Shown here piece after piece: positions 5,722-48,351 of a stretch of 48,351 nt of DNA (its first letter is position 1; every line of letters begins with the position of its first letter). The translations under genes and the position numbers were made by a program. The notes under the pieces were generated by a model. It worked only from the letters and a program-made list of their open reading frames with translations. It had not been told where the DNA came from and made no database searches. The DNA comes from a virus (taxonomy: Duplodnaviria; Heunggongvirae; Uroviricota; Caudoviricetes), in IMG/VR virus record IMGVR_UViG_2654588181_000001; one strand, 5' to 3'.

Positions 5722-8506
5722 AACTTAATCTCCGCTGTTGGAACATATGAGCACTCAATTTCTTCTCAAAATCAGAATATCCCGCATCTAATGCTCTTTT
5801 AGCTGCCGCCTCAGTTTCCTTTGGTGAACCAGCCGGAAGATTGATTACAGGTGAATAGGTTATTCCACCAGTCACAGCATTAACGTTCTGGCGAGGTCCA
5901 GAAGTCCCGGCGGCAGATATCCCGTGAGGTGATAAATTTGATTGCCCGAACTTGGTTGCTATTGCATTCTGTAAGCTGTTATTCCTGCTAACGCCTGATG
6001 CCAGAGTAGTCATTATTGCACCACCTGACTTTGTTAGCTGTGAGAATGGACCTTTTTTCGCGTCAGAGAACGGTAAATACTCACGTACAGAAGAAAAAAC
6101 GCCTTTCACTTCATTAATTAAAGCATTTGCTTTTGATTTTATCCCAGTGATTAACGTCTCAATTATTTTTGCGCCTGACTCACTCCAGTTTATTCCAGAC
6201 AAATAAGCCGTTACAGATTGGAATGCTCTTATAAAGAGTCCAACTGGTGAAAAACGCATAAAAACAGATACCAGTGTATCTATGATTTTCTTTCCTGTTT
6301 CGCTCCAGTTAATACCAGAAAGGTAATTTGTTGTAAGTTTAAATGCTTTAATTAAGAACGGAAGCGGAGACATCCATTTAAAAGCACTAATTAATGTACT
6401 GTAAATTCTTACTCCTGCCGAACTCCAGTTTATGTTGGAAAGATAATCCCATGCTTTACCAAACATAGATATAATCCATCCATTGAGATCAAAGTTTAAG
6501 ATAAAGTTTTTTATAGCTTCAAACGATTTAACTGTATATTCCTTAACAGAAGGCCAAACTCTGACAGCATAATCTCTGATCTTATCCCAGTTCTGATAGA
6601 GCAATATTCCTGCGGCAACCAGCGCAGATATAGCCATCTGAATCCACCCGAAGGGTGTTAGCTTTGTCGCTACAGATAAAGCCAGCATAGCTACCCTACA
6701 CGCTATAACCACACTTTTCATGGTTAGAAACGCACCTGCCGCCATCACAATCTGAGACACAAAATTGGGGTTGTTAGCTACAAATTCACTAATTTTTGTA
6801 ATCAGCGGAACCAAAACACTAAGCGCGGCATTCAAAGCAGGTTGCAAGGCCTGACCAAAACTTAATGATGCATTGCTAGCCTGAATACGTAATTGTTTCA
6901 ATCGCTCCGCATTGTCTTTCGTTATGTTGGCAAAATCGCGGTCAATAACAGCACTTCCAGCACCAAGAGATGTTGCTTTGATTCTCTGGTATTCCTTCCA
7001 GTTTTGAATCATCGGACGAACAAAGTTCTGAACCTGCATATCGCCAAATAGCTCACCAAGTAACTTCTGATCTCCGTTCTTAGTCATTTTCATGACAGAA
7101 TGCATTGCAGCTTCGAATGGATTCTTCCCTTTTTTCTGCGCTGTTGTGACAATTTTATATAAATCTACACCGAAATTTTTCTTTGCTTTTTTTAGTGTTT
7201 CAGGGGAAAGTATTTTCGCCAAAAAGTTGTTCATATTATTAGCAGCCTCATCCGAAGTTGCAGCACCTTTGCGAGCTATCTGCAAAGCTGCCCCCATCGT
7301 CGCGGCGGCTTCTTTACCTCCCATTTTTAATGCCTGGAACTGAGCACCAAGCACAGGAAGATTTTTGGCCATATCTTTAAATTCAAAGTTTCCCTCTTTC
7401 CCTGCCTGAACCAGAATCCCCATTGCAGACTTCATTTGAGATGGATCAATCTTCAATGAGTCACTTAATGTAAATGATGCTTTCGAGACATCGAGGATAT
7501 CAGAGCCAGTAGCTGTAGCTGTTCGCCCAATAGTTAGTAGATTCGCCTGAGCCTCTTTATAATCCTGCCCAGCAGCGACGAGAAAACCCTGAGCGGCCTG
7601 AATATCAGATGCAAACTGGTTGGTGGCCGTTCCGGTAACAAGCATCGCCTGCCCCATCGCCTGAACTTCTTCCGGCTTCATATCTGCCGTAAGACCAATC
7701 ATTTTGTTTTCACGATTGAAATTTGCTGCATTGTTAGCAGCAGCAAATGCACCAGCCGCTACAGCACCAGTTTGTAATCCTGACCTTACAAGTTGACTCT
7801 TTGCCTCACCAAGATGCTCTCGCTTCAATTCACGCTGCCTTTCCAACGCGCGGTTTAACTCCTCCTGAGCACGTTTTACTGCAAGAACATTTTTCCGTGC
7901 TTCAGCCAACGCATTTTTATAGCTGTTAATTTTATCAATACGTTGTTTTTCTAATGCCCGGTTAAGTTCCTCCTGCTGTTTTTTCACTTGCTGAACATTT
8001 GCTCTGGCTAAAGCCAAAGCCGTTCTGTAGCGGTTAACCTGCTCAACGCTACGGACCTGAGCCTCACGATTACGATCAATGCTGGCTTTAAGCTCTTTCT
8101 CTCTTGAGGCCAAAGCTCTGGCAGATGTATCAGCTCCCTGATAGGCAGACTTTAAAGCGGCCAGTTCTTCACGCTGAGAACGTAGTGATGCTCGTAAATT
8201 CGATGAATGTGTTTTTGCCTTCTCAAAGTCACGAAGCATCGCTCTGGTTGGATTGGCCGTGTTTTTTATTTGCTTCTGTAACTCTTCAACGCGAGCGGCA
8301 GCTTTATGATATTCGAGGGCAGTCTGTCCAACCTTTACTTTTACAGATTGTAGCTTTTGAATTTCCCCATGTTCTTTCGTTAATCCAGCAAGCTCGGCAT
8401 TTAATTTAGCAACAGCCTGATTAGCTGTAGTAAAACTTTTGGGGAGAGAGGCGGCAACTTTGCCGCCAATTTCAAAAGCCAGCTTAAAGTTCTTATTGCT
8501 GGCCAT
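5714..8506 (-). CDS. tail tape measure protein
   Basis: 930-aa ORF, coiled-coil repeats (QEELNRALE... duplicated), C-terminal hydrophobic segments, follows frameshifted chaperone pair. Confidence 0.85.
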   Translation of the reverse strand: MASNKNFKLAFEIGGKVAASLPKSFTTANQAVAKLNAELAGLTKEHGEIQKLQSVKVKVGQTALEYHKAAARVEELQKQIKNTANPTRAMLRDFEKAKTHSSNLRASLRSQREELAALKSAYQGADTSARALASREKELKASIDRNREAQVRSVEQVNRYRTALALARANVQQVKKQQEELNRALEKQRIDKINSYKNALAEARKNVLAVKRAQEELNRALERQRELKREHLGEAKSQLVRSGLQTGAVAAGAFAAANNAANFNRENKMIGLTADMKPEEVQAMGQAMLVTGTATNQFASDIQAAQGFLVAAGQDYKEAQANLLTIGRTATATGSDILDVSKASFTLSDSLKIDPSQMKSAMGILVQAGKEGNFEFKDMAKNLPVLGAQFQALKMGGKEAAATMGAALQIARKGAATSDEAANNMNNFLAKILSPETLKKAKKNFGVDLYKIVTTAQKKGKNPFEAAMHSVMKMTKNGDQKLLGELFGDMQVQNFVRPMIQNWKEYQRIKATSLGAGSAVIDRDFANITKDNAERLKQLRIQASNASLSFGQALQPALNAALSVLVPLITKISEFVANNPNFVSQIVMAAGAFLTMKSVVIACRVAMLALSVATKLTPFGWIQMAISALVAAGILLYQNWDKIRDYAVRVWPSVKEYTVKSFEAIKNFILNFDLNGWIISMFGKAWDYLSNINWSSAGVRIYSTLISAFKWMSPLPFLIKAFKLTTNYLSGINWSETGKKIIDTLVSVFMRFSPVGLFIRAFQSVTAYLSGINWSESGAKIIETLITGIKSKANALINEVKGVFSSVREYLPFSDAKKGPFSQLTKSGGAIMTTLASGVSRNNSLQNAIATKFGQSNLSPHGISAAGTSGPRQNVNAVTGGITYSPVINLPAGSPKETEAAAKRALDAGYSDFEKKLSAHMFQQRRLSFG

Positions 8507-24499: not shown

Positions 24500-24700
24500 T
24501 TAATGCTCGCGTCGTCCGGCGACAACTTCGGATTTGTATTTCAGGTCGCCCAGCAAGAATTGCAGTTTAAGCATCTTTGCCGCCGTGTAGTTCCCTGATT
24601 CCACAACCTCTTTCATGAGGTCATAAACGGCCGCAACATCATCAGCCAGGAACTCTTTGCGTTGCTGCTCAGTCGCACGTTTGAAGGAAATACGCATCAC
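24500..24700 (-). CDS. hypothetical protein
   Basis: 66-aa ORF overlapping stop of upstream gene. Confidence 0.4.
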   Translation of the reverse strand: MMRISFKRATEQQRKEFLADDVAAVYDLMKEVVESGNYTAAKMLKLQFLLGDLKYKSEVVAGRREH

Positions 24701-24966
24701 TCATCATCTCCTGCCGCACATACAACCTCACAAAAAACATCAGCGGAATGTTTCTTTTTGAATGAATGGCGCTCAAAACCGCACTCAATATCAGGCGCAA
24801 AAACATCCACCACATACGGTCTTTCAGAATGTTTGTTTTCCCAACGATAAACCGTAGTGACGTTGAAATGTTTTAACGCTTCACGGAACTCAACGCTGCC
24901 CGTCAGGTTTTTTGAGGTCAGGTATTGCAGGAGGTTTTTTACTACTTCACGGTCTTGTACTTTCAT
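24697..24966 (-). CDS. hypothetical protein (first gene after promoter-leader cassette copy 1)
   Basis: 89-aa ORF; ATG preceded by CCGGAGATAACCCG leader. Confidence 0.5.
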   Translation of the reverse strand: MKVQDREVVKNLLQYLTSKNLTGSVEFREALKHFNVTTVYRWENKHSERPYVVDVFAPDIECGFERHSFKKKHSADVFCEVVCAAGDDE

Positions 24967-25083
24967 CGGGTTATCTCCGGTTTAACCAGGGCGGGTATCG
25001 CTCGGTTTCGGGTATAACCATAGGAAATTTTTTCCCACCTGTAAAGCACCTTTTATATAAATATATAATTATATAATTCTATG
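24967..25083 (-). promoter_or_regulatory. repeated promoter-leader cassette, copy 1
   Basis: Near-identical to 31746..31865 and 41210..41330; -35 TTTACA, 17-nt spacer containing GGAAAAAATTTCC, -10 TATGGT, ~60-nt conserved leader, GGAG then ATG. Confidence 0.6.
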
Positions 25084-25973: not shown

Positions 25974-26049
25974 TGGTGGCCCCTACCGGATTTGAACCGA
26001 TGACCGTGCGATTATGAGTCGCCTGCTCTAACCACTGAGCTAAGGGGCC
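25974..26049 (-). tRNA. tRNA with CAU anticodon (Ile2/lysidine type or Met), CCA encoded
   Basis: 76-nt cloverleaf: GGCCCCT acceptor stem, D-arm TAGCTCAGTGGTTAGAGCA, anticodon loop CTCATAA, T-loop GGTTCAAATCC, 3' CCA; first ~42 nt match my recollection of E. coli ileX. Confidence 0.8.
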
Positions 26050-30322: not shown

Positions 30323-30621
30323 GCCACAGCCCCTCTCAACGGCTTAACTTTGGCTAATAAGGTGTTAAACAACATGGAGTTAGGATTCATGCCAAATGGC
30401 AATTCCGGTTTAGCGGAGTAGTACAGGCAACCATTTATTTTCCTGGTTGTTATCTGTCCTTCGGCAACCATGCTTCTCAGTCTGCAACGCATAGAGTTCT
30501 GCGACACACCAATGTGCTCCGCGATTACGTCCACTTTTGAACATGGGTGATCGGTCAGGAAATTAATCACATCTTGGGGGTTAATAATTTTGCGTTTCAT
30601 TGTCGAGGCGTCCTTATACAT
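30319..30621 (-). CDS. small HTH DNA-binding protein (first gene of 4-gene operon); start may be second ATG at 30600
   Basis: 100-aa ORF; AT-palindrome motif and terminator hairpin immediately upstream. Confidence 0.5.
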   Translation of the reverse strand: MYKDASTMKRKIINPQDVINFLTDHPCSKVDVIAEHIGVSQNSMRCRLRSMVAEGQITTRKINGCLYYSAKPELPFGMNPNSMLFNTLLAKVKPLRGAVA

Positions 30622-30677
30622 TTATATAAATATATAATTCTATATACGGCGGGAGACATCCCGCCGTAGGCTTACTG

Positions 30678-31745
30678 TCAGGCTTTCAATAGCGATTCTT
30701 TCAGATATCGGGCATCAGCCAGGGCGTTTGGAGTAATCTTGCGAACCCATGCATTACGGGTTGGACTCCACTTAAAGGCGCGTGATTTAAGCAGCGAACG
30801 AATGTTTGCCTCTGGTTTGCCAGGGAAATAAAACAGGATGCGGTTATCCTCTGGATCTATCTCCATAGAAAAGCCGTCGTATTCTTCGCGCTGTGCTCCT
30901 GTTACAGACTTGACCGATTCAAGCTCCTTAATACGGCTCTGTAGTCGTTTGATTTCGGCGTTATTGTTGCTCAGTGCGTATGAAGGGAATCCGATGCGCC
31001 CACAGAAATCTCCGGCCAGTAACTCTTTGGCTTCGCTTTCTGTAAACCTGAGATCGATTAATGCAGAAAGCTGCTGTATTTGGTCTTTTTTGTATTTGCG
31101 AATGGCCTTATTTGCGGCCTTCATTTTGACGTGTGACTTCATGCAGCCTTGCAGCTTACGAAGCAACTTAAATAGCGCATCAGGATCATCAGACGAAATT
31201 CCATTACGACCAACACCTGCGGCTTTGCTCTCGTAGTGTGATGCTTTACTTTCGCATTCAACAAACGCTTTTCTGAATAACGCATCAGCTTTAGACAAAC
31301 GGCGGCGATGGCCTTTCGCGCTATAATGGTCAACTAAAATCGGCTGGCCTAACGGGATCACATCCAACAGGTCATGCGCTCGCTTATGCGCTACCGCACC
31401 TTCTTTTCTGGCTTTTTCTGCACGAGCAATATATCGGGCAAGACGCGCGTTCTGGCGTTCCTGATAGGTGTTTACGTAATCATCTCCGCGCTGCTGCTGT
31501 TCAAGCCATGCTTTGCGCAGATCTTCTGTTACGTCCACCAGCTCCGCAGGGATACAACCAGTTTGGGCTTCATAAGAGTAACCATCCTCATAGATACGCC
31601 CATCGTCTTCAACAAAGAAAAAGGTTTCGTGCTCATCGCTTTTGACCATACGACCATTAACATGGCGTAATAGGTAGCCAGTATCAGTGCTTAACAGGCT
31701 GTTAGGGTTGTTGATCCAGTCAGAAATAATTACTTGTTTATTCAT
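30678..31745 (-). CDS. conserved hypothetical protein (possibly DUF3560-like)
   Basis: 355-aa ORF directly driven by promoter-leader cassette copy 2. Confidence 0.55.
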   Translation of the reverse strand: MNKQVIISDWINNPNSLLSTDTGYLLRHVNGRMVKSDEHETFFFVEDDGRIYEDGYSYEAQTGCIPAELVDVTEDLRKAWLEQQQRGDDYVNTYQERQNARLARYIARAEKARKEGAVAHKRAHDLLDVIPLGQPILVDHYSAKGHRRRLSKADALFRKAFVECESKASHYESKAAGVGRNGISSDDPDALFKLLRKLQGCMKSHVKMKAANKAIRKYKKDQIQQLSALIDLRFTESEAKELLAGDFCGRIGFPSYALSNNNAEIKRLQSRIKELESVKSVTGAQREEYDGFSMEIDPEDNRILFYFPGKPEANIRSLLKSRAFKWSPTRNAWVRKITPNALADARYLKESLLKA

Positions 31746-31865
31746 CAGATTTCTCCGGTTTAACCAGGGCGGGTATCGCTCGGTTTCGGGTATAACCTTA
31801 GGAAATTTTTTCCCACCTGTAAAGCACTTTTTATATAAATCTATAATTATATATTTATAGATTTT
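31746..31865 (-). promoter_or_regulatory. repeated promoter-leader cassette, copy 2
   Basis: Same ~115-bp element as copies 1 and 3; -10 variant TAAGGT; leader ...CCGGAGAAATCTG ATG. Confidence 0.6.
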
Positions 31866-34265: not shown

Positions 34266-34284
34266 TTAACGAACTCCAGTTAAA

Positions 34285-34402
34285 ACCACGATATGTGGTA
34301 TTAAAACCACATATCGTGAGTTTTTCAATGGGCGAAACAAAAAATAACCTTCTATTTGTGGTCCACCTCTCGTCTTACCATGTGAAAACCACTAAATGTG
34401 GT
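34285..34402. promoter_or_regulatory. divergent promoter/operator region with ACCAC-N5-GTGGT operators
   Basis: ACCACGATATGTGGT (34285..34299), ACCACATATCGTG (34306..34318), GTGGTCCAC (34357..34365), ACCACTAAATGTGGT (34388..34402). Confidence 0.65.
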
Positions 34403-34439
34403 AATGTATAAATAACCCACCATTCACGATTGATGAGAC

Positions 34440-35096
34440 ATGAAAAGCAACGACGAGAACATCAAGAAAGAAATAGGTCTGCGCATTCAGACTCTACGGA
34501 AACAATCCGGCATGACTGCCGGAGATCTCCAGCAAGTCACTGGAATAGGCTTAAGCACCTTGCAGAACTATGAGGCCGGATTAAGACAACCATCTATACC
34601 TGCCATCAAGAAAATCGCGCACGCCCTAAAAGCATCAGCGCCTTACATCGCGTGCTTAACAGATAACCCGTTCCCACCCCAGAATACTAACGCTCCTGTT
34701 ATTCCTGGGCTTGTAGCTATAAAAAATGACATAGCATCGCACGCCGGAGAAAAGCCTGTGCTGGCGATAGAACAGGAGATTTTACGAAGCAAGAACATCA
34801 ACCCATCGTCTCTGTCAGTTCTCCAGAGCAACGATGAGTTAATGTCACCAACAATATCCCCTGGCTCCCAAGTCCTGATTAATACAGACGATACAGAGAT
34901 TCATGAGGGGATCTATGCCCTTGAAGACAGAAATGGCCTAGTTGTTTTGAGGCACTGTAGAGTCATACCGGGTGACAATGCTGTTATGCTGTCAACCGAA
35001 AGGGATGCTGAAATGAACACTAAGCATCTGAATAACGAGGAATTTAAGCGTTATAAAGTTCTTGGCCGCGTAGTTAGTGTTGTCAACTGGTTATGA
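34440..35096 (+). CDS. CI-like repressor (HTH plus S24/LexA-like autocleavage domain)
   Basis: 218-aa ORF; N-terminal HTH; C-terminal ELMSPTISPGSQVLIN resembles S24 Ser-nucleophile region. Confidence 0.8.
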   Translation: MKSNDENIKKEIGLRIQTLRKQSGMTAGDLQQVTGIGLSTLQNYEAGLRQPSIPAIKKIAHALKASAPYIACLTDNPFPPQNTNAPVIPGLVAIKNDIASHAGEKPVLAIEQEILRSKNINPSSLSVLQSNDELMSPTISPGSQVLINTDDTEIHEGIYALEDRNGLVVLRHCRVIPGDNAVMLSTERDAEMNTKHLNNEEFKRYKVLGRVVSVVNWL

Positions 35097-35188: not shown

Positions 35189-35563
35189 ATGGAATTACAT
35201 ACAGCCAATAAAAACGAAACTCTGATCACTGCTGGAATCGAAATCCAAGCGTTGAACATAGCGATTGAGTGTATGTTATGCCAAATCATTGATAATGAGA
35301 AAGATATCGACTGGATAGAATCTATCCTTCATCTGGCATCAGAACAAAAAGTCTGCCTCAAAACGGCCTTACAATACGATGTGCCAGCGGTATCGAAGCT
35401 GTGCCAGCCATTGATGGCATATAACAGAGCTATTATTTCTGTATGCCTCATGATTCTCGATGAAAACACCCCTCTTAGCGACCGCTCAGAAGCTGCTCTA
35501 ACCCTCTCACGTAAACAGCGACAGCTAGCAAATCAACTGATATCAACGATAGCTGACCTCTGA
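35189..35563 (+). CDS. hypothetical protein downstream of repressor (superinfection-exclusion position)
   Basis: 124-aa ORF preceded by operator-like ACCACATTTTGTGGT at 35140..35154 overlapping a TTGACA. Confidence 0.45.
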   Translation: MELHTANKNETLITAGIEIQALNIAIECMLCQIIDNEKDIDWIESILHLASEQKVCLKTALQYDVPAVSKLCQPLMAYNRAIISVCLMILDENTPLSDRSEAALTLSRKQRQLANQLISTIADL

Positions 35564-35713
35564 CTGCAAGCGGGCTAACGCCCGCTTATATGATTATAGA
35601 TTTATATAATTATATAAAACGCTTTTCATCCGCCAAAAAGTTGGTTATGCTTACCTCGTTCTATAAATATAGATTTATAGAATTATATAATCAAACACAT
35701 GGAGTCTCGACAA

Positions 35714-36367: not shown

Positions 36368-36410
36368 TATATAATTATAGTTTTATAGATTTATATAAGA
36401 GGGGATACAC

Positions 36411-36659
36411 ATGGCCGCACCATCAAAACCACCAAAGAAGAACAGCAAAGGCGTACCGCCATCGATCGAACAACCGCAAGTTTTCGACCCGACTGAAACG
36501 CCAACCAGAACCAAATCAGGTGGGGCTCAAATGGCGTTTAATGTCGACCCTGAATTTAAACGCGAGTACAAAACGTTCGCCAGCTCAATGGATATGTCAT
36601 TGAAAGAAGTGCTGACAAAGTCTTTTGAGTTACTCAAGGCTCAATACAACCAGAAGTAA
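36411..36659 (+). CDS. small centromere-binding partner (ParG-like RHH)
   Basis: 82-aa ORF directly after parA; disordered basic N-terminus then MAFNVDPEFKREYKTFA RHH-like segment. Confidence 0.55.
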   Translation: MAAPSKPPKKNSKGVPPSIEQPQVFDPTETPTRTKSGGAQMAFNVDPEFKREYKTFASSMDMSLKEVLTKSFELLKAQYNQK

Positions 36660-36880: not shown

Positions 36881-36903
36881 TAAAAAAGGCCCCCGAAGGG
36901 GCC
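36881..36903 (-). terminator. rho-independent terminator
   Basis: GGCCCC-CGAA-GGGGCC hairpin followed by T-run on minus strand. Confidence 0.5.
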
Positions 36904-36909
36904 TAATCG

Positions 36910-37029
36910 CTACTTGCTGCTAATGTTTATCGTCACATTCAGAGCGTTATCAGTAATCTTCCAACCCTCCCCATGTGGCGTAAACAAAGCTCCAGTAACA
37001 ACGATAAAAATACACATACAGTATTTTTT
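36910..37029 (-). CDS. small hydrophobic peptide (40 aa) with own SD and terminator
   Basis: MKKYCMCIFIVVTGALFTPHGEGW...; AAGGG 8 nt upstream of ATG; terminator immediately downstream. Confidence 0.35.
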   Translation of the reverse strand, partial: KKYCMCIFIVVTGALFTPHGEGWKITDNALNVTINISSK

Positions 37030-37785
37030 CATTGTGTGGCCCTTACAGGCCGTTTCACGGCATCCCCACCGACGAAAACAACGCGAGAGCAAGCACGGCT
37101 GCTTGTGCTTGCATGTACGGCAACAGGAAATCCTCCCCTAAAGTCGGTGCCCGGGTGCGAATCGGCGGGAAGGTCCACAGGTATTTTACGATTATTTTAA
37201 GATTAGTAATAGGAAAGAAATTAAACGAAAAAAACAGTTTATTTTCACAAAATCAGTAACCTACCCACAATCTGTGAGTTTGCTGACACAACAAGAACCA
37301 CAATTTTTTGATGTATAATAGTGGACTATTATTACCTTTTGAGTAAAATCAATTTGCTGCTTGTGCTTGCGTGGTTGTTTATACAACAACGTAATGCTGA
37401 AAGGACCGCGAATCCGATCAGCACGAAAGAACCGTCCTCAATAGGGCGGTTTTTTTGTTTCTGCCTACCAATAAACCCACGCTATGTGGTTGTCTCTGTT
37501 AAAATCCCGCCGTATTGACATGAATGCGCCATTGGTGGACACTTTCCGAGCCGTAGCAAAATCTACGGTCGGGATTAGCCTCCTGAATAACACGATGGCG
37601 CATACCGCGTTAGCGGTTTTTTTATGCGTAGAGCACTGTTACGCCCAAATTATGGTGGGTCGTACAGGGGCGGAGAAATCCGCGCCGGTTCGTCATTGTG
37701 TCCGGTAAGGCTAACCCTGTACGGCTCACCACCATTTGATTAGCCTCGAATGGCGGTGATAGTTCCATATACTGGAGATATCACA

Positions 37786-37977
37786 ATGACAAACCTACCC
37801 CATGACTATTACGTCAACCTCGTAAAGATCCTTCTCAAGAAAGCCTCATACGCCGATAAATTCCGCCTGGCTGAAATCATCGAGCGCGAAGCTATGCGCA
37901 TCGCCAGCAACGATAACGCTGTTTCTGACGCAAAAATCTCCCTCGTAACCAAAGTAGTTATGGGAGGTGCAAAATGA
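37786..37977 (+). CDS. small ORF overlapping antirepressor start (icd-like position)
   Basis: Stop overlaps ant ATG (ATGA at 37974..37977); start uncertain. Confidence 0.35.
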   Translation: MTNLPHDYYVNLVKILLKKASYADKFRLAEIIEREAMRIASNDNAVSDAKISLVTKVVMGGAK

Positions 37978-39116
37978 AAACGCTTCCGACCGTTAACACC
38001 CTACAGCCTATCCTGCATAACCAGATCCCCGTTATCACTAGTGAACTTCTGGCGCAGTTATACGGAACAAAAATCAAAAACATTTCTGATAACTTTCTGA
38101 ACAACACGACGCGATTCGTAGCCGGAAAGCATTACTTTAAAATTGAAAAAAACGAATTACGCGAGTTCAAGAACAGACCCGAAACAATCGGGTTAGTTGG
38201 TAAAAATGCCCGCTCCCTAATTCTCTGGACCGAACGCGGGGCTGCACGTCACGCTAAAATGCTCGAAACCGATCAGGCGTGGGATGTATTCGAACGGCTG
38301 GAAGACTGCTATTTCAGCCAGAACGCGCAAACGGCCGCGACCGTAACCGTCTCGCCAAACAATGCTCGTGAGGTTGTCGATACGCTCAACGCCAAACCGA
38401 TGTTTTACATTAAGGTGTGCAATAACGAGCCACTCACAACCTCAGCCGATGTTGCCCAGGCATTCAGCACCACAAACAATTCCATCGTTATGGCCATCGA
38501 TGCGCTACGCATTCCTCGCACGGCTGCGGCGCGTCACTTCTTTAAAGAGCAACGACCGTTGGAAGGAAGCGACCGCGAAATAACAATCTATCGCATGACA
38601 AAAGACGGATTTACCTTGCTCATGGAGAGCATCGACGGTCCAGGCGTGAAAGATATCAAGCTGGCCTACATTGAAGCCTTTAACGCTATCAGCAGCGTGT
38701 TAAAAACACAGTACGAGCGTGATCTGGCTAAACGACTGTACCAGGAAAAAACGATTATCCGCGCGGCAACAGAGCATAATCGGCTATTAACGGAACCGAA
38801 CTACAGGAAGGAACTAATCAAGGAGTTTGACAAGGCAACAGGGAAAACCAAAGCGGCGCTAAATCTGCCAGCAATGACTCAGGAAAATGTGATATCAGCC
38901 TTACTTCTTGATCTGCTCAGAAACGCCAGAGCACTTATCAGCTTTGACGAAAACCTGAATCCTCAGCTCAAGCTACTACCACCGACAGGCAAAGTAGTCG
39001 ACCAGGCTGATCACAACAGCATACTCAGCGTACTGGATGCAAACCTGCCAGCCAGGACACTACAGGATCTGATAAAAACATGTGCTGATAAGCTGGCACA
39101 GAAAAGCAGACCATAA
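37974..39116 (+). CDS. antirepressor (Ant-like)
   Basis: 380-aa ORF; N-terminal KilA-N/ORF6N-like segment; operator-like CCCACGCTATGTGGT upstream at 37477..37491. Confidence 0.7.
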   Translation: MKTLPTVNTLQPILHNQIPVITSELLAQLYGTKIKNISDNFLNNTTRFVAGKHYFKIEKNELREFKNRPETIGLVGKNARSLILWTERGAARHAKMLETDQAWDVFERLEDCYFSQNAQTAATVTVSPNNAREVVDTLNAKPMFYIKVCNNEPLTTSADVAQAFSTTNNSIVMAIDALRIPRTAAARHFFKEQRPLEGSDREITIYRMTKDGFTLLMESIDGPGVKDIKLAYIEAFNAISSVLKTQYERDLAKRLYQEKTIIRAATEHNRLLTEPNYRKELIKEFDKATGKTKAALNLPAMTQENVISALLLDLLRNARALISFDENLNPQLKLLPPTGKVVDQADHNSILSVLDANLPARTLQDLIKTCADKLAQKSRP

Positions 39117-39925: not shown

Positions 39926-40198
39926 TCATTTGATCCCTTGTTCCAATTCTGACGACACTTTAACCTTTTCCCATACAAGGGTTTGCAGCCTTAACAGAAT
40001 CGCGTCTTTATCAAGGTGTGAAAGATCCTTAACCATATCGTCAAATGACAGAACGCGAATGGCCATCTCAATGACCCTCGGCGGCTCCCCCTTCTCATAT
40101 CGCTTATATGTAGCCAACGATATCCCAAATTCTTCGGCGGCTCGCTCCTGCGTCCAGTTCATCCCACGACGCCATAATTTCAATTCGTAACCCGTCAT
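39926..40198 (-). CDS. XRE-family HTH regulator
   Basis: 90-aa ORF; LKLWRRGMNWTQERAAEEFGISLATYKRYEKG HTH. Confidence 0.6.
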   Translation of the reverse strand: MTGYELKLWRRGMNWTQERAAEEFGISLATYKRYEKGEPPRVIEMAIRVLSFDDMVKDLSHLDKDAILLRLQTLVWEKVKVSSELEQGIK

Positions 40199-40725: not shown

Positions 40726-40828
40726 CCCAATGCAAGTTATCGGCTTGCCCCACAATAAGTTATCTATCTTCAAACACCCCCTATATTAACACTCGCAAAG
40801 TGTCATTTTGACACTTTGCGCATTGTGT

Positions 40829-41209
40829 TTACTTAACGAGGAATAAAAATGGTTTATTGTTAGGCGGTGTAATCGGGGCTGGCTCGCTTTTGCTCATGCG
40901 ATCAGTGTACCAGGCCAACTCCTTGTCAAAGTAAGCCTGATTAAAATAGGCCATGAATGTAGTTTCAAATCCATAACGACCGCTAATACGCAGCATCTGA
41001 TTGCCGTTCTCTGTTTCCAGATATACCTGGGCACGCTCCTGATTCTCCTTCAGCCAAGTTAAAGCCTCATCGCACGAGGACACACGATACTCATCATCGT
41101 AGCCGTCATCGATGCGGCTTGAAGAAGAACGGCAAATCACGCCAACAGAACCAGCCAGGATAGTTTGAATTTTAAGGAAAGCGTTTTTGCGGATTTTAAT
41201 CATGCTCAT
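40829..41209 (-). CDS. hypothetical protein (driven by cassette copy 3)
   Basis: 126-aa ORF; ATG preceded by CCGGAGATAACCCG. Confidence 0.5.
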   Translation of the reverse strand: MSMIKIRKNAFLKIQTILAGSVGVICRSSSSRIDDGYDDEYRVSSCDEALTWLKENQERAQVYLETENGNQMLRISGRYGFETTFMAYFNQAYFDKELAWYTDRMSKSEPAPITPPNNKPFLFLVK

Positions 41210-41330
41210 CGGGTTATCTCCGGTTTAACCAGGGCGGGTATCGCTCGGTTTCGGGTATAACCATAGGAAATTTTTTCCCATCCGCAAAGCACTTTTTATA
41301 TAAATCTATAATTATATAATTCTATGAGCA
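41210..41330 (-). promoter_or_regulatory. repeated promoter-leader cassette, copy 3
   Basis: Same element as copies 1 and 2; -35 variant TTTGCG; preceded by terminator 41326..41358. Confidence 0.6.
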
Positions 41331-41358
41331 CAAAAAAGCCCCTTTGCAACAGGGGCTT
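41326..41358 (-). terminator. rho-independent terminator after antitoxin gene
   Basis: AAGCCCCT-loop-AGGGGCTT followed by T-run on minus strand. Confidence 0.6.
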
Positions 41359-41372
41359 ATCATTCGTTCTGA

Positions 41373-41672
41373 TCAGATGTTAAACGCTATTCGTTTTCCT
41401 GTGGGAAGCTCAACATCCAGGCTTAATTTGCCTCCCATAGCTTCAACGTAACGCTTTAATGTCGCCAGCTTTAAATCATTTCCGCGCTGCTCCAGCTTTG
41501 TTACTGCTGGCTGGCTTATACCCATCGCCTCAGCAACCTGTTTTTGTGATAACTGGAGTTCTTCACGCATCATCTGCAAGCCGACCTCAAGAATCATCTC
41601 ATCTGCCATTTCTTTAATTCGCGCCTGGCTTTCAGGTGAACGGCTGGCAATCACCTCATCTAATGTTCTCAT
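41373..41672 (-). CDS. HTH antitoxin (HigA-like)
   Basis: 99-aa XRE HTH ORF; start overlaps toxin stop (ATGA). Confidence 0.65.
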   Translation of the reverse strand: MRTLDEVIASRSPESQARIKEMADEMILEVGLQMMREELQLSQKQVAEAMGISQPAVTKLEQRGNDLKLATLKRYVEAMGGKLSLDVELPTGKRIAFNI

Positions 41673-42019
41673 TACTTGCTCTCCAGTGTGTTCAGATGTG
41701 CTGCAAACTCATCCTCAGCTATACGCACCAGTTTTTTATAAAACCGCTTATCGTTACTTTTGTCTCCTGCACAAAGAACGATGGCCCGGCGAATCGGATC
41801 GAACGCATAAAAGGCTCTTATCGGACGGCCAGAAAACTGAACGCGAAGCTCTTTCATATTTTTGTACCGAGAACCTTTTACGGTATCGGCATATGGCCTG
41901 GGTAACTCAGGTCCGTAAACCTGTAGATTTTTCAAATCAGCCAAAACCTTTTCCTGAAGAGCGTCTTCTTGCTCATTTAGCCAGTCGTCAAATCGCTGGC
42001 TAAAAAGTACCGTCCACAT
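41672..42019 (-). CDS. RelE/ParE-superfamily toxin (HigB-like)
   Basis: Start at ATG 42019 (MWTVLFSQRFDDWL...); ...ELRVQFSGRPIRAFYAFDPIRRAIVLCAGDKS pattern; upstream inverted TATAACC repeats. Confidence 0.65.
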   Translation of the reverse strand: MWTVLFSQRFDDWLNEQEDALQEKVLADLKNLQVYGPELPRPYADTVKGSRYKNMKELRVQFSGRPIRAFYAFDPIRRAIVLCAGDKSNDKRFYKKLVRIAEDEFAAHLNTLESK

Positions 42020-42263
42020 GCTCAATCCTATAACCTGTAGTTTATACCACTGACTATATAACCCGTAGGTTATAATTTCAAGAAAAACGGGGCTATTTAA
42101 CATAATGGACGTTATCGGCACCACCGGATCACCGTTCATTGTCGGATCTAAAAAATCCGCTCAAAAGATCATGTTTTCCTGGGCGTTTTCCACCGTTTTT
42201 TATGTTGCTTATTTGTTAATGAAATCTCGTTTTCAGTTTCGCCTCATTTTCGACGCGAAAGCC

Positions 42264-42554
42264 CTATTTTTGTGACTTTACTCCTGGCATATGGACTTCC
42301 CAGCGACGAATCCCCATAGCTGCGCAAAAATCAGCCACATAATTCAATCCCGCCCATTCGCGGATACCACCACGGGCTTTTTCAATGAAAACGGCAATCC
42401 CTTTTTTATTGAGAGCAAAAAGCCGCCAGCTTTTTGTCACTTCGTCCTGGGTAGCCACAACACAAGTGAAAGCTCCCATGCGATACAGGTCCAAGAACTC
42501 TTTGCGTGTTTTGCGTACAAGTTCCATAACAAACCTCATATTTGCATGTTTCAA
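42264..42554 (-). CDS. hypothetical protein
   Basis: 96-aa ORF overlapping stop of upstream HTH gene. Confidence 0.4.
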   Translation of the reverse strand: MKHANMRFVMELVRKTRKEFLDLYRMGAFTCVVATQDEVTKSWRLFALNKKGIAVFIEKARGGIREWAGLNYVADFCAAMGIRRWEVHMPGVKSQK

Positions 42555-42850
42555 ACATCTGTTTTGTTATCAATGAAGATTAACCCTAACCCAGCGAAGT
42601 AACACAGCAGCGCCCAGGCTGCATACGGAATGCTGGATCTGGATGTGGACTCCTTTAACATCTGCCAGTTGCGAACATTGCGGCTATCTTTTAAGCCTAG
42701 TTTTTTGGCCAACTGCGAGCCACTCATTCCGGTCAGGCCAATGACTGCCCGAACTTCTCCACATGTAGGAGATTCCCATTCATCCGCTTTTTTTAAACAA
42801 GCCGGATTCAACATTTTTAAAACAGTATCTTTATCCATAACCATCTCCAT
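42551..42850 (-). CDS. small HTH DNA-binding protein (candidate repressor of the GGAAA-N3-TTTCC operators)
   Basis: 99-aa ORF; promoter has same architecture as the repeated cassettes with AGGAAA-N3-TTTCCT in the spacer. Confidence 0.5.
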   Translation of the reverse strand: MEMVMDKDTVLKMLNPACLKKADEWESPTCGEVRAVIGLTGMSGSQLAKKLGLKDSRNVRNWQMLKESTSRSSIPYAAWALLCYFAGLGLIFIDNKTDV

Positions 42851-43229
42851 TTATTATATCTACGATGGTAGGAAATCTTTTCCTATGTGGCAATAGAAAT
42901 TTACTACATTGCGTATAAGACAAGTTTTCTATGTCTAATAGGAAATGATGTTTCTTACGTTTTATCGCGTTCTGATGGCTACTGTGTGCGTATTTATCGA
43001 CGTTTATTGATAAGGCTCGCCCCTTCCTCCTGCAAAGCCCGGCCGTAGGCCTTATTTCGGCCTTATATAAATTGATTTTGTATAGTTCGAAACGCGCCGT
43101 TTCGAAAAGGATGATCAGGCTGCTCCATGCCTCCGGCAAGTGCCGGAGGAGGTATATTTGAGCGTAGCGACTCGAACCGGCGCGAGCTTTAGCTCGCTGC
43201 AAGGGCGAACATATTCACAGGCAAAGCCT

Positions 43230-43481
43230 GCGTAAGTTAAATAAAGAAAGTTTTAATAAAAGAAAGTGATTTTGCATTTATTTGTTTAGTGCATCTATTA
43301 TAAAAAACCATTTGCATATACATATCAAAACTGTGGATAACTTTATTAGCCGATGCCTGTAAAGGCGATATTTTTGCTGTGTTCAGGTTTAGAGAAAACT
43401 AATTTAGATTGTTTTTTGAACAGATATTTTATTGCGACGTAGATAATCCTCCGGTAAAACCGGATTCATCATTCAGGTGGG
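43230..43481. other. candidate replication origin (oriR-like) downstream of repA
   Basis: AT-rich; DnaA box TGTGGATAA at 43332..43340, about 140 bp past repA stop. Confidence 0.45.
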
Positions 43482-44330
43482 TTAATGTTGGAGTGATTTC
43501 CAGGTCTTTCTTAACCTGTTATAACGCTGCTCAACGAGGGATCGTAAATATGCAAGGTCAGCTCCAGGATACATGCCATCAGCAAATTCCTGGCTAACCT
43601 CTCTAGTGATTTGATGACGAAGTTCGGCCTCTCCCTTTTCCCGAACAAGACGCGCAGCTCTCTCCGCTGCTTTCTGTTTTGCCTTTATCTCTCTGGCCGT
43701 CTTCCTCTGACGCCATACATTCTCCATCTGCTCCTGAATAACAATACGCTTATAATCAGCCTCCGTTATCGCTTTTTTAAGCCGTTCGCTATTCTTCGCA
43801 TTGAAGTAATTAAGTTTCTGGCTAACCGCACGTCTCCATGCTTGTTCAGTAATACCAACGGTTTCCAGCAGTTGATCACGAATCTCTATTTTCGCTGGCC
43901 AATACTGTTTATTCACCCGATCCCAGCGACGTTCATAATCAATAAAACCTAACGCTTTCAGTTGCGACAACGCCCTTGTACAGCGTGTTATAGACTTGTT
44001 CCCAGCTTCGGATACGGTAGACAGGCCGCAAAAATCAGCCAACGCCTCAGCACTGGCCAGAACCCGCTTAGAAATGATGTTTACATGGTGCAAAATCGCA
44101 GCAATCACAGCATTAATCGCCCGACGACGATGCTCGTTTATCCGACGCTTCCGCTCTGACGGTTGATTAACGTAGAACGCAACCTCACACGTAAGATCAC
44201 GACCATTAATGCGCTGTAAAGCATCAGATAACACCAGCGGCAGCTTGTGCGTATGGTGCTTTGGAGGCTGGAACTCCGGCGACAAATTACAAACGTAAGC
44301 TGAACGTAGAGACGGCATTGGTCTATCCAT
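43482..44330 (-). CDS. repA: plasmid replication initiator, IncFII RepA-family
   Basis: ...GLSTVSEAGNKSITRCTRALSQLKALGFIDYE... resembles IncFII RepA1 core as recalled; start uncertain (TTG 44360, ATG 44330 or 44318). Confidence 0.75.
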   Translation of the reverse strand: MDRPMPSLRSAYVCNLSPEFQPPKHHTHKLPLVLSDALQRINGRDLTCEVAFYVNQPSERKRRINEHRRRAINAVIAAILHHVNIISKRVLASAEALADFCGLSTVSEAGNKSITRCTRALSQLKALGFIDYERRWDRVNKQYWPAKIEIRDQLLETVGITEQAWRRAVSQKLNYFNAKNSERLKKAITEADYKRIVIQEQMENVWRQRKTAREIKAKQKAAERAARLVREKGEAELRHQITREVSQEFADGMYPGADLAYLRSLVEQRYNRLRKTWKSLQH

Positions 44331-44344
44331 ATGTTCGCTCTTGC

Positions 44345-44457
44345 GTCCACGGAAAACCAACGTATAATGGGAGTTGTCGAGGCGCCCATGGTTAATTGGT
44401 TGTTGGTTTTCCGTGGATGTCGCAAGAAGCCCGCAGATTTATCTGCGGGCTTTTTGT
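44345..44457 (+). ncRNA. candidate countertranscript (CopA-like antisense RNA)
   Basis: Plus-strand 15-bp-stem hairpin (44347..44361 / 44403..44417) plus intrinsic terminator GCCCGCAGA-TTTAT-CTGCGGGC-TTTTT (44428..44457), antisense to repA leader. Confidence 0.35.
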
Positions 44458-44644: not shown

Positions 44645-45199
44645 TCAATGATTCCCAGCCGGAAACCTGCGGTAAAGCGTGGATAAGGTAACATCGAAGA
44701 TAATCGCTATCCGCTTACGTGAAACACCATTCGCAATAAGCCTTCCGATCTGTTCCCATTGCTCTGGGGCCAATTTTGAGCGGCGTCCTCCTATCCTGCC
44801 ATTAGCCCTTGCCACCGCCAATCCTGCACGCGTTCTTTCAATCATATTTTCCCGCTCCATCTCTGCGACTGCACTCAGCATCGTGTAGGCAAAGCGGCCA
44901 ATTGAAGTGCTAATTTTTATCCCTTCCGTAATCGAAATAAACTCAATGTTGTTTGATAAAAAATGGTTAAGTAAATCAACAAGATGAATCAGAGAACGCC
45001 CCATTCGATCCAGCTTCCAGACAATAACCGTATCGCCCGGCCGTAACACCTTCAGTAGCTTATCAAGCCCTGGTCGTTTTGATTTAGCACCGGATATTTT
45101 ATCTTCAAAAATCCGGTCACATCCTGAACTCCTGAGCGCCTCCAGTTGTAATTCCAAATTCTGGTCAAAAGTTGACACCCTCGCATAACCATATTGCAT
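44645..45199 (-). CDS. serine DNA invertase (Gin/Cin/Pin/Hin family)
   Basis: 184-aa ORF; N-terminal YARVSTFDQ with catalytic Ser, C-terminal HTH; adjacent to inverted repeat. Confidence 0.9.
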   Translation of the reverse strand: MQYGYARVSTFDQNLELQLEALRSSGCDRIFEDKISGAKSKRPGLDKLLKVLRPGDTVIVWKLDRMGRSLIHLVDLLNHFLSNNIEFISITEGIKISTSIGRFAYTMLSAVAEMERENMIERTRAGLAVARANGRIGGRRSKLAPEQWEQIGRLIANGVSRKRIAIIFDVTLSTLYRRFPAGNH

Positions 45200-45272
45200 A
45201 CTTTCTAAACCGCGATTGTTGCTAAAAGCGGGAAAAAATATCGTTTAGACGACACAGAGGCAATTCGCAAAA

Positions 45273-45297
45273 ACCTCGGTTTACAGGAAACGGTAAA
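45273..45297. repeat. inversion crossover site, left inverted repeat
   Basis: ACCTCGGTTTACAGGAAACGGTAAA = exact reverse complement of 48327..48351 and of 1..25. Confidence 0.8.
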
Positions 45298-46297
45298 CAA
45301 GGCTGGTAACGCCGTGCAAAAGACAGGCGATACCTTGTCCGGTGGACTTACTTTTGAAAACGACTCAATTCTTGCATGGATTCGAAATACCGACTGGGCA
45401 AAGATTGGATTTAAAAATGATGCCGACAGCGATACTGATTCATACATGTGGTTTGAAACAGGCGACAACGGCAATGAATATTTCAAATGGAGAAGCAAAC
45501 AAAGCACCACAACAAAAGACCTGATGAATCTTAAATGGGATGCTTTGTCTGTTCTTGTTAAAGCCCTTTTCAGCAGTGAAGTAAAAATATCGACAGTCAA
45601 TGCACTGAGGATATTTAATTCATCTTTTGGTGCCATTTTTCGTCGTTCTGAAGAATGCCTGCATATCATCCCTACACGAGAGAATGAGGGGGAAAATGGT
45701 GATATAGGGCCACTACGCCCCTTTACGCTTAATCTCAGAACAGGTCGCATAACTATGGGGCATGGTCTGGATGTTACAGGAGATATATTTACAAACCGTT
45801 TTTTAATTAACAGCAGTACAGGCATGTGGATTCATATGCGTGACCAGAACGTTATTATGGGACGTAATGCGGTATCCACTGATGGTGCTCAGGCATTGCT
45901 TCGTCAGGACCATGCCGACCGCAAGTTCATGATAGGTGGATTGGGAAATAAGCAATTTGGCATCTACATGATTAATAACTCAAGGACAGCCAATGGCACC
46001 GATGGTCAGGCGTACATGGATAATAACGGGAATTGGCTTTGCGGCTCGCAAGTTATTCCCGGCAACTATGGCAATTTTGATTCCAGATATGTGAAAGATG
46101 TTCGACTTGGTTCACAGCAATATTATGGAGTGAACAACTGGCAAACATGGAATTTCCAGTGCCCGTCAGGTCATGTATTGTCTGGTATTAATGTTCAGGA
46201 TACAGGGTCCAACTCTGCCGATAATATAGCGGGCGTTTATTACAGACCCGTTCAAAAGTATATAAATGGCACCTGGTATAATGTAGCGAGCGTTTAA
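45273..46297 (+). CDS. alternative tail-fibre C-terminal cassette (silent in this orientation)
   Basis: Open frame through the left repeat (…[25 protein letters not shown]…) with no upstream start; becomes fused to the constant part after inversion. Confidence 0.7.
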
Positions 46298-46298
46298 T

Positions 46299-46826
46299 AT
46301 GATGCACTTAAAGAACATAAAAGCGGGTAACGCTAAAACACTGGAACAGTATGAGTTAACAAAGAAACACGGAGTTATCTGGCTTTACTCTGAGGACGGA
46401 AAAAACTGGTATGAGGAAGTGAAAAACTTTCAGCCAGACACAATAAAGATTGTTTACGATGCAAATAATATTATTGTCGCCATCACTAAAGATGCCTCCA
46501 CGCTTAACCCTGAAGGTTTTAGCGTCGTTGAGATTCCCGATATAACAGCCAATCGTCGTGCCGATGATTCAGGAAAGTGGATGTTTAAGGATGGAGCTGT
46601 AGTTAAACGGATTTATACGGCAGACGAACAGCAACAACAGGCCGAATCACAAAAGGCTGCGTTACTTTCCGAAGCTGAATCAGTCATCCAGCCGCTGGAA
46701 CGTGCTGTCAGGCTGAATATGGCAACAGACGAGGAACGCACACGACTGGAAGCATGGGAACGCTACAGTGTTCTGGTCAGCCGTGTGGATACGGCAAAGC
46801 CAGAATGGCCACAAAAACCAGAGTAA
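46299..46826 (+). CDS. tail fibre assembly chaperone (silent-orientation copy)
   Basis: 175-aa [17 protein letters not shown]...; paralog of 46854..47387. Confidence 0.75.
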
Positions 46827-46853
46827 AATTAAGGCCCGATAGCGGGCCTTCTC

Positions 46854-47387
46854 TCATTCTGGTTGTTCGGGAAACGTTACTGGCAGGCTGGAGGTGTCTG
46901 TAGATTCGACTTTCTGCGCATAGAGCATCCACTCGGTTAATTTTTGTTTATTCTCGTCGGAAATGATGCCCAGCCGTAACTGTGAGTCCCATAGCTGGGT
47001 TTTATCCCTGACGAGCTGTAGCAAGCTTTGCTTTTCATTTTCCACCTGTTGCCGCTGCTCTTCCTCGGTATAAGTTCGCTTTATCACTACGCCATCTTTG
47101 AACATCCATTTACCCGAAATATCAGCCCGGCGATTTGCTGTAATATCAGGTAATTCAACGACGCTTGCGCCTTCTGGATTAATTGCTGAAACATCCTTTT
47201 CAATACAAATAATAACGCCGTTGTGGTCATAGACCATTTTCAACGTATCAGGCTGAAAGTTCTTTTGTTCCTCATACCAGTTTTTCCCATCCTCTGTATA
47301 AAGCCATTTGATGTTAAATTGTTTCGTTAGCTGGTATTGCTCTTTTGTTTTAGGGTTGCCAGCAGTAATATTTTTTAAGTGCATCAT
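46854..47387 (-). CDS. tail fibre assembly chaperone (expressed-orientation copy)
   Basis: 177-aa ORF MMHLKNITAGNPKT...; directly follows fibre C-terminal cassette. Confidence 0.75.
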   Translation of the reverse strand: MMHLKNITAGNPKTKEQYQLTKQFNIKWLYTEDGKNWYEEQKNFQPDTLKMVYDHNGVIICIEKDVSAINPEGASVVELPDITANRRADISGKWMFKDGVVIKRTYTEEEQRQQVENEKQSLLQLVRDKTQLWDSQLRLGIISDENKQKLTEWMLYAQKVESTDTSSLPVTFPEQPE

Positions 47388-47389
47388 AA

Positions 47390-48351
47390 TTAAATACTCC
47401 CCGCGTTATACCACGTTCCATTAATGCAATACTGAATTGGCCTTGCCTGAGTTGTATCAATTAATTCATCACGGTTTCCGTTAACTGACCCCGTAACGAC
47501 ATAACCTGACCTGTCAGACCAGCCGGGACCATTCCATGTCTGAACAGATGACAGACCGCCAAGACGAATACCTGTAATAAACCTTGAGTTACATTCTGCC
47601 TGCGTGTATGCACCAACATCTCCCGCAGAGGGTTTGCGGGTTGTGGTGTAAAACTCTGACCAGTCAGCTTCAAAGCCATAACCATCACGCGCTGAACGAT
47701 AAAAGATACCGCCATTTCTGTAATTCACGCGGAACTGTACAGCAGGGCTGCTCCCCGTATTCATATTGAAGTGGAGGATTAATGTCGATGCGCCACCAAT
47801 ATTTGCGTTATAGACCCCGCTATTCCAGTTCCAGCCAACAGCTTTATCATTTCCGACAGTGCTTCCTGTTTGCCCTAAAGCAAATGCAGGCTGCTGGTTT
47901 TTCGTGTTGTAGTCTCGTCGCCAGCCAGGAGCATAAGCATCACCATGATTAATATAGGTGAATTGAGCGTTAGTAATTCCGCCGCCGCTGGACGTACTCG
48001 GCGTAGTAACGCGTATGGTCATTGCGCCGCGAGTGCCAATAACTTCCACCACAGCACCTGCAAGACAAATATTTCCGCAACCTGTATCTGTAATGACCTT
48101 ATTATTTGCATAAGCCCATGAGCCTTTGCACATCCAGTAAGGATGGTTAAATGCCCCCTGACTCTCCAGCCACGAAATAAATTGCGCAGTTGTCCAGACC
48201 TGACTATCGCCACCAATATCCACCCATGCGCTATATGCGCGACAGGCCCCAATATTTTTGGTGAAGGTATCTTTTCCCGGAATATCTGCGCCGTTCTGGT
48301 TTTTCTGTAATGCGCCAGAAGCCTGATTTACCGTTTCCTGTAAACCGAGGT
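47390..48351 (-). CDS. tail-fibre variable C-terminal part (in frame with constant part at 1..1361 across the junction)
   Basis: Minus-strand frame open from 48351: [18 protein letters not shown]...; Gly-rich distal domain ending INGTWYNAGSI. Confidence 0.8.
   Translation of the reverse strand, partial: LGLQETVNQASGALQKNQNGADIPGKDTFTKNIGACRAYSAWVDIGGDSQVWTTAQFISWLESQGAFNHPYWMCKGSWAYANNKVITDTGCGNICLAGAVVEVIGTRGAMTIRVTTPSTSSGGGITNAQFTYINHGDAYAPGWRRDYNTKNQQPAFALGQTGSTVGNDKAVGWNWNSGVYNANIGGASTLILHFNMNTGSSPAVQFRVNYRNGGIFYRSARDGYGFEADWSEFYTTTRKPSAGDVGAYTQAECNSRFITGIRLGGLSSVQTWNGPGWSDRSGYVVTGSVNGNRDELIDTTQARPIQYCINGTWYNAGSI
48327..48351. repeat. inversion crossover site, right inverted repeat (identical to 1..25)
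   Basis: TTTACCGTTTCCTGTAAACCGAGGT; core resembles gix/cix-type sites as recalled. Confidence 0.8.

Follow-up and report, generated by a model that had tools for sequence, protein, structure and literature searches.

Finding the same inverted repeat in the promoter of a small HTH gene and in the promoters of three gene cassettes of one viral genome raises the question of which protein reads that repeat, and with what effect on the genes behind it. The genome concerned belongs to a temperate myovirus of ~48 kb that persists as an IncFII plasmid, i.e. a phage-plasmid, and the stretch of DNA analysed here (48,351 bp, referred to below as the window) is almost the whole of it. Many plasmids of 47-52 kb from E. 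coli and its relatives match it at ~99% identity, as do the Yersinia phages vB_YpM_39, 41 and 44. Besides the IncFII RepA (43482..44360) and a CI-like repressor with HTH and S24 peptidase domains (34440..35096), it encodes ParA, terminase, portal, sheath, tube and tail-fibre genes and a DNA invertase. At least 80% of the length of the 3.6-kb region that contains the HTH gene (40800-44400) was found in 63 of 5,426 complete E. coli genomes; one carrier is plasmid NZ_CP009073.1 of E. coli strain ATCC 25922. The RefSeq annotation of the gene is nevertheless "hypothetical" or a generic HTH protein, and our literature search returned no paper connecting KorC, the repressor family discussed below, with phage-plasmids, and none mentioning the phages closest to the window. 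Elsewhere in the window we noted a tRNA-Met (CAT) gene (25974-26049, minus strand) amid lysis and methylase genes, as well as a full-length Rfam match to the ryfA sRNA family (140 bits; 36882-37178, minus strand), here inside a phage-plasmid. At 44645-48223 a Hin/Cin-type invertase adjoins opposed tail-fibre ends and tail-fibre assembly genes, an arrangement that suggests a host-range switch.

The initial annotation had proposed that GGAAA-N3-TTTCC is common to the promoters of the HTH gene and of the three cassettes, and had listed a genome-wide motif scan among the checks. Scanning the window for GGAAANNNTTTCC gave exactly 4 matches in 48,351 bp (25023, 31801, 41266 and 42871), where 0.10 are expected and none of 100 shuffles reached 4; these represent two independent occurrences rather than four, since the three cassette sites share ancestry through a 121-nt direct repeat (88-96% identity) that contains them. 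All four sites fall at the four promoters, each between the -35 and the -10, with none elsewhere in the window, and the spacers read at these predicted promoters are indeed 17 nt long. The HTH gene promoter stands as it had been quoted (TTGCCA-CATAGGAAAAGATTTCC-TACCAT, minus strand, 42893..42865), whereas the string given for the cassettes, TTTACA-GGTGGGAAAAAATTTCC-TATGGT, is correct for cassette A (25045..25017) but not for cassette B, which has TAAGGT as its -10, or cassette C, which has TTTGCG as its -35 and a GA linker. The full repeat is a 17-bp palindrome, TAGGAAA-N3-TTTCCTA, with 7-bp arms, the last TA of which opens the -10 hexamer. It is perfect at the HTH gene (42869-42885, TAGGAAA-AGA-TTTCCTA), and in the cassettes it reads TGGGAAA-AAA-TTTCCTA, with one mismatch between the arms. 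Allowing up to 3 mismatches revealed no additional site in a promoter-like position within the window. The predicted -10 hexamers (TATGGT, TAAGGT and TACCAT) match the consensus weakly. Two further results were set aside. A second repeat, TAGGAAA-N5-TTTCTTA (42939-42957, ~55 nt upstream of the perfect site), is probably due to chance, being absent from the Salmonella and Enterobacter relatives, and a scan of 596 Gb of genome contigs for TAGGAAANNNTTTCCTA gave scattered matches in unrelated taxa, at the level expected by chance for 14 fixed bases.

The gene behind the perfect site, which we call korC-like for reasons given below, lies on the minus strand at 42551..42838 and encodes a predicted repressor of 95 aa. 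It had originally been drawn as 42551..42850, but the start is most likely at 42838 (MDKDT...), a choice favoured by a GGAG 8 nt upstream, by the RefSeq gene models and by the alignment of homologues. Its promoter (42865..42893, minus strand) reads TTGCCA-CA-TAGGAAAAGATTTCCTA-CCAT, that is, a -35 of TTGCCA (42893-42888), the putative operator TAGGAAAAGATTTCCTA (42885-42869) and a -10 of TACCAT (42870-42865). Just downstream on the same strand is an 87-aa gene (42264..42527), which is probably co-transcribed with korC and is missing from the Salmonella and Enterobacter relatives.

The three cassettes are also on the minus strand. In cassette A (24963..25083) the promoter reads TTTACA-GG-TGGGAAAAAATTTCCTA-TGGT, with the -35 TTTACA at 25045-25040, the putative operator TGGGAAAAAATTTCCTA at 25037-25021 and the -10 TATGGT at 25022-25017; AT-rich motifs are present as well, and the leader comprises a predicted hairpin (25007-24984), a ribosome-binding site and the ATG (24966) of an 89-aa gene (24697..24966, phrog_6143), after which there is a terminator-like hairpin (24478-24455). 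Cassette B (31741..31861; -35 TTTACA, 31823-31818; putative operator, 31815-31799; -10 TAAGGT, 31800-31795; predicted leader hairpin, 31785-31762; ATG, 31745) precedes a gene for a 355-aa DUF3560 protein (30678..31745), the C-terminal part of which resembles a PHROG annotated as primase. Cassette C (41206..41326; -35 TTTGCG, 41288-41283; putative operator, 41280-41264; -10 TATGGT, 41265-41260; predicted leader hairpin, 41250-41227; ATG, 41209) is shielded from upstream transcription by the higBA terminator (41358-41336) and precedes a 126-aa gene (40829..41209) found only in this phage-plasmid lineage; a predicted model of its product has a small alpha/beta fold with no convincing match to a known fold. 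Apart from DUF3560, the cargo proteins had no matches in Pfam, NCBIfam, PADLOC or the PDB, the DUF3560 literature was of no help on a cargo role, and none of them matched KlcA or Kle proteins (126-aa protein against KlcA, E 3.5). The initial annotation spoke of accessory genes; the cassettes, which keep both position and cargo, are conserved backbone features of the lineage rather than variable accessory genes.

Which protein family does the HTH gene belong to? By BLASTP its product is 53% identical over 80 aa to KorC of the IncP-1 plasmid pA1 (E 3e-24), and a tblastn search against plasmids matched IncP-1 plasmid genes annotated as KorC. The homologue P0015, which is more distant, occurs in a klcA-klcB-korC-kleE-korA-incC-korB neighbourhood, and an alignment of 12 homologues has 25 invariant columns. 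No Pfam or NCBIfam model detects the 95-aa protein, and its PHROG match, to a repressor family, is weak. A KorC family profile searched against the PDB (chains 7dtr_A, 7elm_U and 9vt3_A) aligned to the HTH domain of AcrIF24 (E 1e-7) and to Aca3 (E 5e-3), in agreement with the original description of a small HTH protein. IncP-1 plasmids have four global repressors, of which KorC is one, and experiments have established that KorC represses several promoters of IncP-1 and IncU plasmids. Judged by its homology, its size and HTH domain, the geometry of its putative operators and the fact that there are several of them, the 95-aa protein is a member of this family of global repressors.

We read the IncP-1 operators from sequence at promoters reported in the literature to be KorC-repressed. 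The pA1 klcA promoter reads TTGACG-AT-TAGGACATTTTGCCCTA-ATAT, and the pA1 kleA promoter carries TAGGGCATTTTGCCCTA. The same layout was seen in pAKD34 (TAGGGCAATTTGCCCTA), in pS163-2.1 (TAGGACAAAATGTCCTA), in a conjugative plasmid of Neisseria gonorrhoeae (TAGGATAATTTATCCTA) and in three viral contigs, L143 and L144 (TAGGACGAAAAGTCCTA) and L142. In nearly all of these elements the palindrome begins 2-3 nt past a recognisable -35 and its last TA opens the -10, as in the window; in a metagenomic IncP contig it directly follows a KorA operator. Across these elements the outer TAGG/CCTA is constant, whereas the inner three bases are specific to each lineage. In the phage-plasmid clade the recognition helix is SRN(V/L/I)R(N/Y)W, or SRN(V/L)RNW in all but one homologue, and the arm is TAGGAAA, while five other lineages have the helix RT(V/I)R(R/K)W and the operator TAGG(G/A)C(A/G). 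The SRNVRNW-type helix is thus paired with inner AAA and RT(V/I)R(R/K)W with GCA or ACA; in L142 (RQVRKW) and in the Neisseria plasmid both the helix and the inner bases are different again. Since the inner bases found here are unlike those of every characterised KorC operator, recognition is read from this correlated change, which is mainly between two groups. AAA with an asparagine-containing helix and GCA/ACA with T and R/K form a natural pair on which operator reading by KorC could be studied.

Sequence similarity to IncP-1 extends beyond the operator. The cassettes and the IncP-1 klcA and kleA promoters have in common a -35 region AAGTGCTT(G/T)AC, in the form AAAGTGCTTGAC in IncP-1 and AAAGTGCTTTAC in the window, and a leader of the pattern ...CCG.GC....GCCC.GGT....CCGGAGA....CCGATG. 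By these similarities, the cassettes and the KorC-controlled promoters of klcA and kleA in IncP-1 plasmids go back to one promoter-leader module.

One may also consider that the palindrome is bound by another regulator, and that the KorC-like protein has a different target. Several more small HTH proteins are encoded within 3 kb, and a 90-aa HTH protein (39926..40198), the HigA antitoxin (41373..41672) or a host factor could be proposed for this role. However, TAGG-N9-CCTA travels in this promoter position with KorC homologues in unrelated backbones (IncP-1 plasmids, the Neisseria plasmid and viral contigs) that do not have those proteins, its inner bases covary with the recognition helix of KorC, and a perfect copy is present at the korC promoter in every relative examined. 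We therefore regard another regulator as improbable.

Comparison with relatives bears on whether all four sites are maintained. In a fully read Salmonella plasmid whose KorC is 64% identical there are exactly four sites, at korC and at three syntenic cassettes that precede the same three genes. The initial annotation had taken absence of the repeat from homologous cassettes of related genomes as evidence against its proposal; in this diverged relative the repeat is present with unchanged arms, and at its cassettes the palindrome is perfect even though the leader and upstream bases differ from those of the E. coli lineage. An Enterobacter relative has kept the site at korC, with changes in the -35 and the flanks. 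In general, where KorC is 62-64% identical the arms are unchanged and the korC promoter layout is kept while the flanks drift. Over 16 loci the arms TAGGAAA/TTTCCTA are invariant, except for a fixed A-to-G at arm position 2 in the cassettes of the E. coli clade, whereas the -35, the linker, the central 3 nt and the -10 all vary. In PLSDB, 62 records carry the full cassette, most of them three times, and a close KorC homologue is present in 62, a co-occurrence that is confined to one phage-plasmid lineage and hence partly reflects shared descent. A truncated cassette, consisting of the AT-rich part, the -35 and half of the operator, lies beside higBA at 3001-3048 of NZ_CP037908.1, where it is cut by IS26 next to a cfr resistance gene, on 28-kb conjugative plasmids. 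We had considered this as an independent context for the cassette and rejected it, as it is an IS26-cut fragment.

These comparisons also speak to the idea that only the korC site is functional and that the cassette sites are remnants inherited with an IncP-like promoter module. Such remnants could be carried passively in the 121-nt repeat, and the single arm mismatch of the cassette sites in the window would fit with this. Nonetheless, the Salmonella cassette sites are perfect within diverged surroundings, and across loci it is the arms that stay constant while the hexamers, linker and central triplet do not, so that we give this explanation little credence.

We consider it quite probable that a KorC-family repressor binds the spacer palindrome and represses its own promoter and the three cassette promoters, allowing a burst of expression on entry that is then shut off. 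The repression of these four promoters by the HTH protein through the shared repeat, as proposed originally, is supported by the KorC homology, the operator geometry, the conservation of the sites and their co-occurrence with the gene. In this mechanism a KorC dimer would bind the 17-bp palindrome TAGGAAA-N3-TTTCCTA; as this sequence takes up the spacer and extends over the first two -10 bases, RNA polymerase would be blocked by bound repressor. The perfect operator in the korC promoter would provide negative autoregulation, and the near-perfect operator in each of the three 121-nt cassettes would control the 89-aa gene, the DUF3560 gene and the 126-aa gene. In IncP-1 plasmids KorA and KorC strongly repress klcA, the expression of which rises ~220-fold in new RP4 transconjugants. 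By analogy with RP4 klcA, entry into a cell that is free of KorC would lead to a burst of cassette expression, which would cease as KorC accumulates in the plasmid-prophage state. Binding, repression, timing and any role of the cargo are what we infer from the features described above.

A protein bound within the spacer might instead activate or remodel the promoters, as MerR-type activators do from the same location. The spacers here have the optimal length of 17 nt, which fits repression, whereas MerR-type promoters typically have 19-20 nt; in addition, the site extends into the -10, and every characterised KorC is a repressor. All of this makes activation very unlikely. Lastly, that the korC promoter and the cassettes match by coincidence, although the sequence is A/T-rich and the occurrences independent of one another are only two, is hardly credible given the shuffling result, the identical position of the sites relative to both hexamers and their conservation in diverged relatives.

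The leader hairpin predicted in each cassette is common to the IncP-1 klcA and kleA leaders. Across 11 sequences it is 89% paired, with four pairs changed on both sides, and its covariation of 0.333 exceeds that of shuffles (0.245; 1 of 500), slid controls being far lower. The fold in the window alone is weak (z -1.4), and an Rfam scan of the whole window placed no family at gathering score over the hairpins. We take these results as no more than suggestive of a conserved leader hairpin.

KorC may not act alone, as suggested by an AT-rich motif just upstream of the -35 of each cassette. The core of this motif (TATAGAWTTATATAA), TAGAWTTATA, is present 10 times in the window, where 0.24 are expected. 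Its copies are found upstream of the three cassette promoters (25052-25083, 31830-31861 and 41295-41326), after the DUF3560 gene (30621-30642), three times upstream of parA (35590..35692, plus strand) and once between parA and an 82-aa gene (36370-36400), and their distribution is identical in the Salmonella and Enterobacter relatives. One more TAGAWTTATA match, inside the tape-measure gene (7158-7167), is possibly due to chance. IncP-1 promoters have a KorA operator at the place where the cassettes have the AT-rich motif. Neither the KorA operator GTTTAGCTAAAC next to the -35 nor KorB operators were found above chance in the window, and no KORA domain was present among the scanned proteins. 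A second regulator, a product of the partition locus, may act at the AT-rich motif, for which the 82-aa ParG-like protein (36411..36659) and a 124-aa protein (35189..35563) are candidates. We tentatively raise, as a possibility less likely to be true than not, an IncP-1-style dual-control establishment circuit, in which KorC would act on the spacer palindrome and a par-locus protein on TATAGAWTTATATAA, with entry-phase factors as cargo. Were this true, the cargo could serve in functions such as anti-restriction, anti-defence or replication priming, with a burst of expression at infection that parallels the one of klcA at conjugation. The three conserved cassette genes are, in any case, candidates for early establishment roles.

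The regulon had also been described as separate from the CI operators. Between the CI-like gene and the divergent early operon there are three ACCAC-N6-GTGGT palindromes (34279-34403), which are likely the CI operators, and this intergenic region has no GGAAA/TTTCC site of the KorC type. The candidate CI operators are thus a different palindrome, and the separation holds. In the vicinity of the CI-like repressor, Rfam matches to isrK and C4 antisense RNA (37550-37736) lie just upstream of an ORF6N/Rha-domain gene (37974-39116), a locus that resembles the c4/ant immunity module of P1-type phages.

How does this system compare with known ones? As in phage morons, each cassette is a self-contained promoter-gene unit between phage operons, and terminators flank A and C; unlike morons, the three cassettes have one common promoter-leader and one dedicated repressor, and their position and cargo are conserved across the lineage. 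Aca proteins bind inverted repeats in strong mobile-element promoters, shutting them off after an early burst. The Aca autorepressors AcrIF24 (C-terminal domain) and Aca3 have HTH domains matched by the KorC family profile, which hints at common ancestry and regulatory logic of KorC and some Aca proteins, although the relation in sequence is distant and we identified no anti-CRISPR gene in the window. KorC of RA3, an IncU plasmid, is likewise a global repressor: it coordinates several backbone promoters, belonging to three modules, and at some of these it works jointly with KorB, the partition protein. In RA3, which we compared by regulation, the korC promoter is weak, constitutive and not autoregulated, whereas here the best operator lies in the korC promoter.

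The closest likeness is to the kil-kor regulon of IncP-1 plasmids (RK2/RP4, pA1 and pAKD34) with KorC and its operators (OC), where KorC together with KorA is reported to repress klcA, kleA and kleC. Both have a homologous protein (48-53% identity), a 17-bp TAGG-N9-CCTA palindrome located in the spacer and ending in the first TA of the -10, several operators at promoters of short operons, and a homologous -35 region and 5' leader. They differ in the inner bases of the operator (GCA/ACA in IncP-1, AAA here) and in the recognition helix. Moreover, IncP-1 korC is the last gene of the klcA operon, whereas here it lies beside the IncFII origin, behind a promoter of its own that contains an operator; the IncP-1 cargo (klcA, klcB and kleA-F) is unrelated to the cargo found here, and the host element is a tailed phage. 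By sequence, then, the system is of the KorC/OC kind in a new host element, an IncFII myovirus phage-plasmid. This would give a name and a testable mechanism to four unannotated features of a common element, and indicates that a module of broad-host-range conjugative plasmids, with its repressor, operator geometry, promoter and leader, has been acquired by a tailed phage with a plasmid lifestyle.
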